DNA of 64,000 nt from a virus, in the IMG/VR virus record IMGVR_UViG_3300037316_000027, positions 62,821 to 126,820 of that record, one strand, 5' to 3'. How positions within the stretch are numbered: the stretch's first letter is position 1; every line of letters starts with the position of its first letter. The position numbers and the translations under genes are program-made. A model generated the notes under the pieces. It saw only the letters and a list, made by a program, of their open reading frames with translations, searched no databases and was not told where the DNA came from. Below are positions 33,257 through 62,838 of the stretch, in pieces.

Positions 33257-33813
33257 TTGAAGAAACTCTTTCTTGCTTTTGCTGCGCTGTCGGCTTGCGT
33301 GATGCTAGCCGGTTGCGATGAAGACACTTCGGCCGGGGCACGTGATACTCGCGCGCGACCATGGTGGCGACCGAACAAGGTGCTGTCGCGGTTGGCTTTC
33401 CGGCGATCATCAACTGGGCCGAGAAGCGGCTTCTCAAGATGATCTATGAGCTACGGGACAATCCCAAGCTGGTGACGTACACATACGTCACGGATTTGGC
33501 CGGCAAGCTGCATTCGGTCTGCATCGGGACCAACTCAGTGGGCTATCCACTGCCCTACGCGACCCAGTACACGGCCCCGAAGTCGCCGGTCATACGGCGT
33601 GCCCAATACCCGACGAGCTATCAGGGCAGCTCCCAAGGCGAATGGCGCACCTATGAAGCGGACCAGCCCGAACCGAACGGGCTGTATATGCCGTCGTCGG
33701 CGGAAGGCACGTGGGTTGCGTGTTTGAACCCGGAGACCAAACAGGTAGCGCCGGTCTATGTCGAAGATCGTGTGCGGACTTACCCTTACAAGATCGCGAC
33801 CGCTGTCGATTGA
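33257..33813 (+). pseudogene. Lipoprotein gene interrupted by an apparent 2-nt frameshift in a (CG)4 tract
   Basis: Signal peptide plus lipobox LAGC in frame 33257; body continues in frame 33361; deleting one CG at 33350-33357 fuses them (DTRATMVA). Confidence 0.6.
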
Positions 33814-33834
33814 TTGTCGATCGCGCGAAAATCG

Positions 33835-33862
33835 AAAAGCCCGGCATTGCTGCCGGGCTTTT
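33835..33862. terminator. Bidirectional intrinsic terminator between the plus-strand operon and the tmRNA
   Basis: aaaagcccggca-ttgc-tgccgggctttt. Confidence 0.85.
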
Positions 33863-33865
33863 CTT

Positions 33866-34205
33866 TGACCGTTCTGTTGCTAGGTGGTCGGCCCCAACCG
33901 CGTTACGCCGCGAGGCGCATTTCGGTCATGGGAACGTTGTCGTTCACATTTAGAGTTTGACCCGAGCCCACGCCGCTTCGCGGCATAGGGGACGGCGGTA
34001 TCATGCCGAGTTCACTTCGAGACTTCTTCGCGTCCATCGATCCTGTTTCGCCCCCATCAAAGTCGGCGCGTGCATCCCCGCAGGGTGTGTGCTCGCTCTT
34101 AGCGAATGGCATCCATGCCACTTCGCGCCGACCATGGTGGAGGCGCGGGGCATTGCATCCCCGGTCTGACCGCAGTCCGTCTCAACATTCAGAACCATCG
34201 TCCGC
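33866..34205 (-). ncRNA. ssrA: Circularly permuted (two-piece, alphaproteobacterial-type) tmRNA
   Basis: Minus strand: acceptor piece ending CGCCTCCACCA (3' end 34135), 79-nt intervening hairpin segment, coding piece starting GGGGGCGAAACAGGATCGA (34055) with a G3:U70 pair; tag frame 33947-33903 encodes VNDNVPMTEMRLAA*; downstream GCAACAGAAC. Outer ends approximate. Confidence 0.92.
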
Positions 34206-34293
34206 CGCTGGTCAACCACTCGCTACCCATCCCCCGTTGCGTTCCTTGAAACGTGGGGGCCAAAGCCTTGTCCGTTGTGCGGCGAACGTCGTT

Positions 34294-34322
34294 AACCTAC
34301 CTCCGCATTCCGTGCCTGTCAA
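34294..34322 (-). promoter_or_regulatory. Sigma70-like promoter for the tmRNA
   Basis: TTGACA-N17-TAGGTT on the minus strand. Confidence 0.6.
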
Positions 34323-34395
34323 GAGGAACGTTTCGGCGCGCTCTGAATTGATATGCCCAGAGGGGCAACCCGAAAATAAGGAAAGAGAGACTGAC

Positions 34396-34695
34396 ATGAA
34401 AAAGGTTTTGATCATCGCCGCTGCGATCACCGCGCTCGCATGCGCGCCTGCCCTAGCGCGTGGCAATGGAGGCGGACACGGCGGCGGTGGCGGCTTCCAT
34501 GGCGGCGCTGGTGCTGGCGTTCACGTCGGCGGCTTCCATGGGGGCGGCCACATTGGCGGTCGTGGCGTAGGCATCGGGCTCGGTCTCGGTGCAGCCGGCA
34601 TCGGTCTGGGCCTCGGCTGCCCGGCGCACGTCGTAGGCTACGACGCTTACGGCAACCCGGTCTATCGCCGCACGTGCGGCGACTACGACTACTGA
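34396..34695 (+). CDS. Secreted glycine-rich small protein
   Basis: Signal peptide MKKVLII..PALA, GGFHGG repeats, C-terminal C..VGYDAYGN..C. Confidence 0.8.
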   Translation: MKKVLIIAAAITALACAPALARGNGGGHGGGGGFHGGAGAGVHVGGFHGGGHIGGRGVGIGLGLGAAGIGLGLGCPAHVVGYDAYGNPVYRRTCGDYDY

Positions 34696-34869: not shown

Positions 34870-34944
34870 GCGAGGGTATTGTAAGTAGCATGTCGAGATA
34901 CACCAATCTTGAAAGTGCCGGTTCGTATCCGGCCCCCCGCTCCA
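34870..34944 (+). tRNA. Degenerate tRNA-Gly-like element
   Basis: GCGAGGG/CCCCCGC acceptor stem (1 mismatch), U discriminator plus CCA, T-arm GCCGG-TTCGTAT-CCGGC; weak D-arm and 8-nt anticodon loop TACACCAA. Confidence 0.5.
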
Positions 34945-36011
34945 ATCCTGAACTCTATCTGGAAGTGTGTTCTGCGGGCGACCCCCGCTACAAGGACATT
35001 CTCAAACACCACTACATCTGGGCCGGTGAGACAATCAAAGGTATACAGGGTCAACAAGTTCATTTTCTTATTTGGTACAAGGAAAAGATCGTTGGGGTGA
35101 TCAGCGGCGCGAGCGCCGTCTATCTCACCGCTCCCCGAGATAAATTCTTTGGGCTGCATGGCAAACGCGCGACCAAAGGCAAGCCCGCAATCGGCAATCG
35201 AGAAAAGTGTCTGAATGGCATCGTCGATAATGTTGTGTTTAGGCTCGAAGATCATGAGAAAAATCTAGCTAGTCGGGTTCTCTCCCTCTGGGAGAAAAGC
35301 GTTGTTTGGGTCTGGGAAGCGCTTTACGGGACCAAGGTTTATGGTTTTGAAACCTTCGTTCTCGGCAACGGATCAATGAAACAGGAAGAGGTTCCCGGAG
35401 CCGCGCCAGATAGTCGCGGGCGGCCAATCTTGCATGTTGTACGCGTCGATGACCCCGAAGGTATCGTGCGTAAAGGCTTTATCTATCGTGCAACCGGCTG
35501 GTCGTTGGCTGGGACAACTTTCGGGAGTGCTAAAGGGCACGACGGGGTCGGACTAACCGGCGGCAAAAATTACCGCGAGCGCGTCTCGCCGCAGCTACAC
35601 AAAGACCTAATCGAGTTGGGGGTTCTGGAAGAGGGTGATGACAATCGCATCAACGACCCATTCCGAAGAAGGAACGTGCCAACGAAAGATGTTTATTGCA
35701 AGTGGGTTCCCGGATACTCGTCTCCGATAGAAAGCAATTACATCTCGTCGTGGAAGGCGGGCACTGCGAATGGGACGCCGGAAGAGAAAGCGTTGGCTAA
35801 GTGGCGGACTGATTTTCGGCGCAAACTGCTCGGCACGAGATTTTCTCGGGACGGAAAGGCGCTTGTATATGAAAACCTCGAACAGACAATTTGCGGGCGG
35901 GTCGAGTGGAATGCACCCGGAGCGCCGGGTGACACTAGACGCCGTAAAATGCGACAATCTATCCGTGCACCCTCTGAGCGTGAAAATTTACGGTCGCCCA
36001 AAACCGACTAA
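34890..36011 (+). CDS. DUF4338/DruA-like (Mom-related, GNAT-like fold) protein
   Basis: HHY..GQQVHFLI..VGVISGASAVY..PRDKFFG..IVDNVVFRL..NLASRVLSLW..W..LYG..GFETFV..GFIYRATGW..G.T; start uncertain because it overlaps the tRNA-like element. Confidence 0.7.
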   Translation: MSRYTNLESAGSYPAPRSNPELYLEVCSAGDPRYKDILKHHYIWAGETIKGIQGQQVHFLIWYKEKIVGVISGASAVYLTAPRDKFFGLHGKRATKGKPAIGNREKCLNGIVDNVVFRLEDHEKNLASRVLSLWEKSVVWVWEALYGTKVYGFETFVLGNGSMKQEEVPGAAPDSRGRPILHVVRVDDPEGIVRKGFIYRATGWSLAGTTFGSAKGHDGVGLTGGKNYRERVSPQLHKDLIELGVLEEGDDNRINDPFRRRNVPTKDVYCKWVPGYSSPIESNYISSWKAGTANGTPEEKALAKWRTDFRRKLLGTRFSRDGKALVYENLEQTICGRVEWNAPGAPGDTRRRKMRQSIRAPSERENLRSPKTD

Positions 36012-36639
36012 AGAATTCCTGCGTAGTATTGAGACGCACGGGCTCTTGCAACCCATCATCATAAACGACCAAGGTCACCATGTGATCCTGTCTGGGAGTA
36101 CACGGGCGGAAGCGTGGCGAATGCTATGGGAGCAGAAGCGCCTCAAGTCAAGCTGGATACCCTGTCGCATTCTTCATCTTTCGCCGCTGGAGGCTGAGCG
36201 CCTCGTTATAGAGAGCAACCGTCAGCGGGTAAAGACAGCGGGGCAGAAGGCGCGAGAGAGCAACGAGCTTGTGAGGATTTTCTCGGCCGATCAAGATGTC
36301 AGGAGCGCGATTGCCCGGATCGCCCGTGAAACCAAACAGGGCGTCCGAACGGTCAACAAGCAGATCATGATCGTGACGGAGGCAGGCGCGCGGAACGTAG
36401 TTGCACAAAACGCTCTCGCCGAACTGGATAAAAACCAAACGAGCGTGAGCGCCGCCTACCGTGCGATCAGTCCGCAAAAACGGACCTTGCGCAATTCTCC
36501 GTTAGGGGGTAGGGTTGCGGCACTTGAGACGCTCGCCCGGAAGCTCCCTAATGATCTCAAGGACCCGACGAACAAAGAGTTTCTAGCCGAGGCCGTGGCG
36601 AGAATAGGCGCAGCGGTCCGCCTACTGCACCGGAGTTAA
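35929..36639 (+). CDS. ParB/Srx N-terminal domain protein
   Basis: LSVHP..IYG..FLRSIETHGLLQPIII..ILSGSTRAEA..LVIESNRQR; GTG start with GGAG SD. Confidence 0.8.
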   Translation: MTLDAVKCDNLSVHPLSVKIYGRPKPTKEFLRSIETHGLLQPIIINDQGHHVILSGSTRAEAWRMLWEQKRLKSSWIPCRILHLSPLEAERLVIESNRQRVKTAGQKARESNELVRIFSADQDVRSAIARIARETKQGVRTVNKQIMIVTEAGARNVVAQNALAELDKNQTSVSAAYRAISPQKRTLRNSPLGGRVAALETLARKLPNDLKDPTNKEFLAEAVARIGAAVRLLHRS

Positions 36640-62734: not shown

Positions 62735-62838
62735 TATCCCCTGAGCTTGTACGTGACAAGCTCAAGGTTCTCAGCTAGAACTTAACCCAAGCCCGGCACC
62801 CCGCCGAGCGCCTTTTCTACAGCACATAGGAACAGCAA

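Follow-up and report, generated by a model that had tools for sequence, protein, structure and literature searches.

The question raised by this locus is whether a tailed phage harbors a working transfer-messenger RNA (tmRNA) gene of the two-piece kind, where such a gene would have come from, and what it might do for the virus. The stretch investigated here, referred to as the window, comprises 64,000 nucleotides of the IMG/VR virus record IMGVR_UViG_3300037316_000027 (positions 62,821 to 126,820), and all coordinates below are counted from its first letter unless another contig is named. A first-pass annotation, made from the letters alone, had placed at 33866..34205 on the minus strand a complete permuted tmRNA with a valine-initial tag. 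When the whole window was scanned with Rfam at gathering thresholds, exactly two matches were obtained, both at this locus and both on the minus strand: tmRNA_permuted (RF04321) at 33903-34196 with 98.7 bits (cut-off 47, E 5.6e-18), and alpha_tmRNA (RF01849) at 33872-34213 with 95.2 bits (E 1.2e-24), well over its cut-off of 50, this being the model with which the first-pass annotation had proposed to challenge its own claim. With two models above their cut-offs and the anatomy readable from the sequence, the locus is confirmed as a circularly permuted, alphaproteobacterial-type tmRNA gene.

The order of the parts is that of a permuted gene, as the acceptor piece, ending at 34135, stands upstream of the coding piece, which opens with GGGGGCG from 34055. 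As delimited by the Rfam alignments and the sequence, the acceptor piece (34135..34198, minus strand) holds the P2 strands, the T arm, the 3' strand of the acceptor stem and an encoded ACCA, and closes with ...CGCCUCCACCA at 34135. Its T arm reads CGGGG / AUGCAAUG / CCCCG, that is, a 5-bp stem around a loop of 8 nt. An intervening segment of 79 nt follows (34056..34134, minus strand, drawn from the sequence and from the comparison of four copies), of the kind excised in two-piece tmRNAs and closed by a 10-bp helix; it lies exactly where the annotation had put it. All seven pairs of the 7-bp acceptor stem form, including the expected G3:U70 (34053 with 34141). The coding piece (33872..34055, minus strand), read from the Rfam alignments and an alignment with Nitrobacteraceae tmRNAs, contains the 5' strand of the acceptor stem with G3 at 34053, the pseudoknot PK1, an insertion of 24 nt behind it, the tag frame, and the conserved 3' tail ...CAACAGAA. 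The PK1 block CGGCAUGAUACCGCCG aligns to the helix of the model. Set in the register of Bradyrhizobium-type tmRNAs, the tag frame (33903..33947, minus strand) runs from a GUG resume codon (33947-33945) to a UAA stop (33905-33903) and reads VNDNVPMTEMRLAA, its codons GUG AAC GAC AAC ... CUC GCG GCG UAA standing behind a conserved UAAAU just as in the host-type genes. The GTG resume codon, the VNDN start of the tag and the 8-nt T loop reported at first pass are thus present in the letters. The functional elements are intact, namely the encoded ACCA, the acceptor stem, PK1, the UAAAU before the resume codon, NDN and RLAA in the tag, and the stop.

This gene belongs to a phage. The record is 126,820 bases long, with a CheckV completeness of 100%, and the window is its second half. 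PHROG profiles run on 69 open reading frames (ORFs) of the window recognized a DNA polymerase, a helicase, a primase, two exonucleases, a Gp2.5-like single-strand-binding protein and a deoxynucleoside monophosphate phosphatase, while those run on 54 ORFs of the first half recognized terminase, portal, major head, scaffold, adaptor, major tail, tape measure, tail fibre, endolysin and RtcB. To its left the tmRNA has a gene of the phage family phrog_24725, the nearest contig end is about 30 kb away, phage structural and replication genes lie on both sides, and the fraction of G and C around the locus is even (0.57-0.60). No tyrosine integrase was found in the record, and SmpB gave 0 matches at E<=1 over the whole 126.8 kb, which extends what had been noticed of smpB in the window. 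In the major head protein no cultured phage exceeds 56% identity, and this phage thus lacks a close relative in culture; a blastn search of the tmRNA against 50,697 cultured-phage records returned no match at E<=1e-5. The source is a genuine 126.8-kb virulent-type tailed phage of a siphovirus-like soil/peat lineage.

Four related IMG/VR contigs were compared with the window's own record (G000, 201 crude ORFs). G005 (83.9 kb, 80% complete) has a major head protein 90% identical and hits for 91 of the 201 ORFs, and carries a tmRNA of 135.3 bits at the syntenic site. G006 (93.8 kb, complete with terminal repeats; major head 90%; 17 ORFs of G000 with a hit in the 20-kb piece compared) carries one of 116.7 bits, and G007, a fragment of 14.5 kb on which the major head was not found and 11 ORFs of G000 have a hit, carries one of 98.1 bits. 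In all three the alpha-type tmRNA is on the same strand and adjoins the primase homologue. The four phage copies were aligned from the acceptor 3' strand to the start of the coding piece, and three helices were scored, namely the acceptor stem, the helix that closes the excised segment, and an inner hairpin. Standard pairs occupy 92 of the 92 cells, and both sides have changed in 10 of the 23 pairs; none of 500 shuffles reached as high, and slid controls pair at 36-52%. The acceptor stem has G:U at its third pair in 4/4 copies and two compensatory pairs, and the 10-bp closing helix is paired in 40/40 cells, six of its ten pairs having changed on both sides. The tag frame is open and ends in a stop in every copy. 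Since pairing has been kept through compensatory changes in phages whose flanking proteins are just 45-75% identical, the RNA structure is under selection, the discarded segment included, and this comparison favours a processed, working two-piece tmRNA over a relic.

The nearest relatives of the gene are bacterial. The PK1 block is identical in at least 120 GTDB genomes, mostly Hyphomicrobiales, and the closest bacterial tmRNAs found by blastn, at about 70-75% identity, come from Bradyrhizobium, Rhodopseudomonas, Tardiphaga, Afipia and one bin labelled Hyphomicrobium. The phage tag is as long as the Bradyrhizobium-type tag (ANDNVRMNEVRLAA or close variants of it) and agrees with it at 10/14 residues. 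A maximum-likelihood tree was built from 84 distinct sequences, 87 of 130 candidates having passed landmark extraction and 43 having been dropped, G006 among them because its acceptor strand is off pattern. In this tree the window, G007 and G005 fall with Bradyrhizobium, Afipia, Tardiphaga and Rhodopseudomonas (Nitrobacteraceae) in a clade supported at 100/99, to which Rhizobiaceae, Methylocystaceae and Beijerinckiaceae do not belong; within it, G007 is the sister of the window (96/89). Their placement inside the clade is unsure because the phage branches are long. The phage tmRNA is of Nitrobacteraceae descent, captured from Bradyrhizobium-like bacteria. It is reasonable to regard Nitrobacteraceae as the host, which fits the run labels peat (X1, maybe the own source of the window DNA), watershed and soil.

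The tmRNA is not alone in its transcription unit. A candidate promoter (34294..34322, minus strand; inferred from the sequence) consists of a -35 box TTGACA (34322-34317), a 17-nt spacer and a -10-like TAGGTT (34299-34294), and in G005, G007 and G006 a TTGACA is found at the corresponding position too, with TAGGCT, TACGCT or CTATTC 17-18 nt behind it. At the other end, a terminator-like hairpin of 8 bp with loop GCAA, GC-rich and followed by the U-tract UUUUCGAUUUU (33827..33858, minus strand; sequence), shows compensatory changes in its stem relative to G005 and aligns to the terminator hairpins of small-RNA models (CC0196, 22.8 bits, under its cut-off). The flanking genes, 33361-33813 and 34396-34695, are both on the plus strand, so the antisense arrangement had been described correctly. 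Between the promoter and the first tmRNA helix lies a structured RNA module of 90 nt (34199..34288, minus strand; covariance model R1 and covariation). The upper end of the extent originally drawn cuts through this module of the same unit, which had been missed. Its helix P1b pairs 34288-34279 with 34208-34199 over 10 bp (CGUUCGCCGC with GCGGCGGACG), its helix P1a pairs CAAC (34277-34274) with GUUG (34216-34213) over 4 bp, a bulge ACCA occupies 34212-34209, and inside these follow a conserved 14/14-nt internal loop with the core AACGGACAAGGCUUUGGC ... GAUGGGUAGCGAGUGGUU and a variable hairpin, P2. The same module precedes the tmRNA in G006 and G007. At its place G005 has a plain 6-bp hairpin whose stem letters are those of the outer helix P1 in G006 and G007, and bacteria have a 3-bp hairpin; the shared stem letters identify the module as an insertion into the loop of the tmRNA 5' hairpin. 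Contigs of runs X2 and X3 hold a close relative in which 38 extra letters, forming a hairpin, stand between module and tmRNA (window 34199-34205), which makes the two separable units.

Elsewhere the module keeps company with tRNA genes. Its exact 18-nt core is present in 48 IMG/VR contigs that differ widely in base composition. In 31 of these, tRNA genes lie no more than 600 nt away (in 30 of them no more than 260 nt), without exception on the strand of the module; two further core contigs are G006 and G007, with the module ahead of a tmRNA. In 14 short-form copies, 15/19 pairs have changed on both sides and 89.5% of cells pair, against 58.2% in shuffles (0/500 as high) and 30-44% when slid, so that P1 and P2 covary around a core invariant across very different GC contents. 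The covariance model R1 scores the window copy at 93.4 bits and finds nothing else in G000, G001 or G005, no match in 120 other viral alpha-tmRNA loci or in 120 bacterial tmRNA loci, and, among 80 examined of 82 stretches from a pattern scan for junctions of module and tmRNA, only G006 and G007. Further copies, all unannotated, were detected with it about 400 nt behind the annotated tmRNA of Streptomyces phage Faust, and one behind a tRNA array of Arthrobacter phage Atuin. In Rfam 15 neither the window copy nor the 106-nt short form had a match at E<=10, and 18 module loci gave nothing at E<=0.1 besides tRNAs and tmRNAs. The core strings were absent from the full texts searched and a topic search gave GOLLD/ROOL and bulk catalogues only, of which the tables of PMC10690425 (a catalogue of 10,006 candidates) may list the module.

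A likeness to a glnA-type glutamine riboswitch, as in phage Melnitz, was considered and rejected: neither glnA nor Downstream-peptide matched at E<=10 in 34214-34480, and the resembling letters fall in the variable P2. Nor did Rfam support a resemblance of the module to c-di-GMP, hatchet, T-box or Y-RNA motifs. The family has several size classes, many mid-length forms sharing a second conserved sub-motif of P2, and three loci (L302, L312 and L327) carrying long forms of about 212 nt with a large conserved P2 insertion. In L330, an IMG/VR contig of 175,952 bases, a tRNA gene directly follows the 5' half of a module at locus position 618 (minus strand), and a 3' half is lacking within 600 nt, so this copy is truncated or split. 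We put forward as a possibility, with well under even confidence, that the module is an undescribed, cross-phylum class of phage RNA whose 28-nt internal loop does not vary between AT-rich phages, actinophages and this GC-rich phage. Such an RNA might act on or with tRNA-shaped RNAs, for example as a self-processing element, as a sensor, or as a decoy for a universally conserved host factor of tRNA/tmRNA metabolism, and, once grafted onto the captured tmRNA, might control its maturation or activity.

For the tmRNA itself, our favoured reading, which we regard as probable, is that of a working ssrA gene of a virulent-type tailed phage, captured by an ancestor of the lineage from a Nitrobacteraceae (Bradyrhizobium-like) host, kept since, and freeing stalled ribosomes. 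In the tmRNA pathway, AlaRS recognises G3:U70, SmpB and EF-Tu deliver the charged RNA, and tagging is followed by proteolysis. A single transcript, module included, would run from the TTGACA promoter to the hairpin terminator; the hairpin-closed middle of 79 nt would be cut out, and the acceptor and coding pieces would pair into a tRNA-like domain with G3:U70. Charging would fall to the host AlaRS, and delivery to stalled ribosomes of the infected cell to host SmpB and EF-Tu. Translation would resume at GUG, the nascent chain would gain A-VNDNVPMTEMRLAA, and host proteases reading the ...LAA end would be expected to degrade the product; with its last two alanines changed to aspartate, the phage tag takes the form A-VNDNVPMTEMRLDD. 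The co-transcribed 90-nt module would be a separate, portable RNA unit. The phage would benefit by recycling ribosomes jammed on broken or cleaved mRNAs during infection, a role that fits the 10 tRNA genes and the RtcB gene of the record as other translation-maintenance genes; RtcB, tRNAs and tmRNA together appear to form a set for translation repair or maintenance. Trans-translation is reported to be required for the growth of a lambda-P22 hybrid phage (PMC2862035, Table 4).

Several observations weigh against this reading. A complete relative, G001 (118.7 kb with terminal repeats; major head 87%; hits for 94 of the 201 ORFs of G000), has no 5' module and no tmRNA at the syntenic site at E<=1, so the gene is dispensable for this type of phage. 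The phage branches in the tree measure 0.33-1.18 against a median of 0.015, which could mean relaxed constraint. Among 227 other parsed alpha-type tags (105 viral and 122 of the PK1 pattern) none begins with valine, and GUA-valine-begun tags are described as ineffective in growth competition in E. coli in the discussion section of PMC2862035. A T loop of 8 nt occurs in none of the 110 loci parsed among 120 viral alpha-type loci (107 have 7 nt, 3 parse as 9) and in just 1 of the 71 loci parsed among 129 with the PK1 pattern, and the 24-nt insertion behind PK1 is another departure of the window copy. The candidate -10 box agrees with TATAAT at just 3/6 positions and a consensus scan listed neither a minus-strand promoter nor a minus-strand terminator, so that, of the claim that the gene has its own promoter and terminator, the presence of both signals stands while the promoter is its weak point; the sequencing runs listed for the tmRNA stretch include no RNA run. 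Finally, ARAGORN, the other tool named for a check at first pass, calls no tmRNA in the window, and it also misses those of G006 and G007 while calling those of G005 and two bacteria.

The last point is a miss of the tool and not an absence of the gene. As for the letters themselves, a contig of another run (X3 record 10) covers 33800-33953, tag region included, with 0 differing letters; in X3 record 14 and X4 record 21 the T arm is covered too, the single differing letter lying elsewhere. The T loop of G007 is also 8 nt long, with the same A......G ends. The GUG codon and the 8-nt loop are therefore not assembly errors, being recovered in contigs of other runs and, for the loop, in G007 as well. 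The resume codon is GCA or GCC in host-type genes; in the 120 viral loci, 103 parsed tags begin with alanine directly and 2 have alanine one codon upstream (15 not parsed), and 122 of the 129 PK1-pattern loci have a GCN resume codon. Alanine is likewise kept in G005, G006 and G007, the tags of the latter two starting with GCA followed by one extra codon, so the valine is a change of a single lineage and not a design feature of the clade. Outside this sample, the natural resume codon of Helicobacter pylori is given as GUA (valine), and GUA or GUC are stated to work in E. coli with weaker tags (PMC2862035). Unique in our sample, the valine codon is thus not unprecedented, and the weight first laid on it as non-canonical was too great.

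These departures could also be given a purpose. The RNA might interfere with trans-translation or retarget it, competing with the host tmRNA for SmpB, AlaRS and stalled ribosomes, with the altered T loop, the valine codon and the middle of the tag changing the fate of rescued chains or slowing the host's own trans-translation. A phage that encodes no smpB must draw on the host SmpB pool, the unusual features recur in independent samples and some of them in G007, and 4/14 tag residues differ from the host-type tag; moreover, a DS6A-type mycobacteriophage tmRNA reduced to the tRNA-like domain has been reported as an inhibitor of tmRNA that may titrate SmpB (PMC4131195, PMC11915505). A mere decoy, however, could do without a complete tag frame with its stop, the NDN and RLAA ends and PK1, yet all of these are kept, and the alanine of the three relatives marks the valine as a change of one lineage. 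We consider this idea unlikely. That the same departures are early damage in a host ssrA picked up by chance and drifting since would agree with the long branches, the failure of ARAGORN and the absence of a tmRNA from the complete G001. Against such a decaying relic stand the 92 paired cells in four diverged copies, the 10 compensatory pairs, the intact G3:U70 and ACCA, and the tag frame open with its stop in all four; at 45-75% identity of the flanking proteins, neutral DNA would have lost the structure, and we judge this explanation improbable.

Two further explanations concern what surrounds the gene. That the locus is host DNA, either an ssrA attachment site at the end of a prophage or an assembly chimera, deserves mention since tmRNA genes are described as common integration sites for genomic islands (PMC4131195) and IMG/VR includes prophage fragments. 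It can be set aside almost entirely: the locus is far inside the contig among phage replication genes, syntenic in four contigs (G006 with terminal repeats), without an integrase and even in GC, and it is related to any bacterial tmRNA sampled at just ~70-75% identity. The chimerism with host DNA that had been named at first pass as a refutation is excluded on these grounds. The roles of the two RNAs could finally be reversed, with the module as the payload and the tmRNA as its carrier, a stable, nuclease-processed, tRNA-like RNA which, like the tRNA arrays elsewhere, expresses and liberates the module, for example as a decoy or binder of a conserved host factor or as a self-processing element. 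The portability of the module speaks for this, with its core in 48 viral contigs, tRNA genes near it in 31 of them, two more cases before a tmRNA, and the copies in Faust and Atuin, as do the invariant core between covarying helices, the insertion into a loop and the relative with 38 extra letters. The tmRNA is itself under clear purifying selection, however, and exists without a module in G005. We regard the reversal as doubtful, and it leaves room for the working tmRNA that we favour, since both can hold.

Some observations on the surroundings may be added. The neighbour gene 33361-33813 is absent from G005, and at 17 loci found through it blastn and the motif detected no tmRNA within 6 kb. 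In G001, an alpha_tmRNA match of 25.9 bits, below the cut-off and confined to the T-arm/acceptor part of the model, lies in the tRNA/RtcB region (G001:C1:38155-38216, L144) and may be just a tRNA. The other neighbour, 34396-34695 (plus strand), is a 99-residue ORF with a good ribosome-binding site, a signal-peptide-like N-terminal stretch and a glycine-rich start, and matches no PHROG or Pfam family; in the longest-ORF listing (34003-34695) it is extended, wrongly, antisense across the tmRNA. Further on, 34890-36011 (plus strand) has a weak Pfam match to Druantia DruA (22.5 bits, below the cut-off of 27) and overlaps the start of a ParB-like gene (35770-36639), so these gene boundaries are uncertain. 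Outside the window, the 10-tRNA array is directly preceded by the gene for the RNA ligase RtcB (Pfam 223.5 bits; G000:C1:1112-4001, L002), and RtcB and a tRNA array are paired in the same way in G001. Near the tail genes a cluster (G000:C1:15346-25524, L002/L003, outside the window) comprises three genes like nucleotide-sugar epimerases (phrog_540) and one like a heptose kinase/adenylyltransferase, and a glycosyltransferase (phrog_3408) adjoins the major head gene, which suggests phage-encoded sugar chemistry.

With reference to known systems, the phage-borne two-piece tmRNA is already in print, and the tmRNA of the window, taken alone, is an ordinary new example that adds little. A published census reports tmRNA in 402 of 18,146 phage genomes, with 133 unique structures of which 53 are two-piece (PMC9004378), and earlier one-piece phage tmRNAs are catalogued in PMC4131195; the contrast drawn at first pass with mostly one-piece phage tmRNAs was therefore overstated. 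Our own motif scan of IMG/VR, the phage-database survey that had been proposed, gave at least 120 stretches with the alpha-type coding-piece motif. Since ARAGORN misses three of the four copies in this lineage, phage tmRNA censuses based on it undercount. What these phages do offer is a natural series for testing the purpose of a phage tmRNA, with the module, without it and without the tmRNA, with alanine or valine, and with a T loop of 7 or 8 nt. As far as our searches reach, the graft of a module from tRNA islands onto the 5' hairpin of a tmRNA is new. The fusion of so conserved and uncatalogued a tRNA-island RNA to a tmRNA suggests that its function is tied to tRNA-like RNAs, and provides a simple one-gene system for studying it.

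The closest phage parallels are the OM43 phage Melnitz and the pelagimyophages, for which PMC9004378 describes a permuted alpha-type ssrA in lytic-type phages without an integrase, near an early-type promoter and of presumed alphaproteobacterial host origin. Those are marine myophages in which the gene was found with ARAGORN, whereas the window belongs to a soil/peat siphovirus-like lineage in which ARAGORN misses it. Melnitz is also described as having an extra RNA element attached to its tmRNA gene, a glutamine riboswitch; that element sits in the 3' domain, while our module sits in the 5' hairpin and has no glnA-type or other Rfam match. For the module alone, the GOLLD and ROOL RNAs (PMC12286853) are comparable as highly structured, phage-borne RNAs near tRNA genes, but they measure about 600-800 nt and are in Rfam, whereas the module has a core of about 50-60 nt with a variable P2 and is unmatched there. 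In its valine resume codon the window copy resembles the H. pylori tmRNA, which, according to PMC2862035, is one-piece, from an unrelated bacterium, uses GUA and not GUG, and has a tag ending in a lysine-containing motif without an SspB site. The two-piece tmRNA of Nitrobacteraceae (RF01849/RF04321) is nearest of all, sharing the order of the pieces, the PK1 letters, UAAAU, the tag length, NDN...RLAA, the 3' tail and the clade in the tree. From it the window copy differs in having ~70-75% sequence identity, GUG for GCA/GCC, a T loop of 8 instead of 7 nt and the 24-nt insertion behind PK1, in being encoded by a phage without smpB, and in the replacement of the small 5' hairpin by the 90-nt module.

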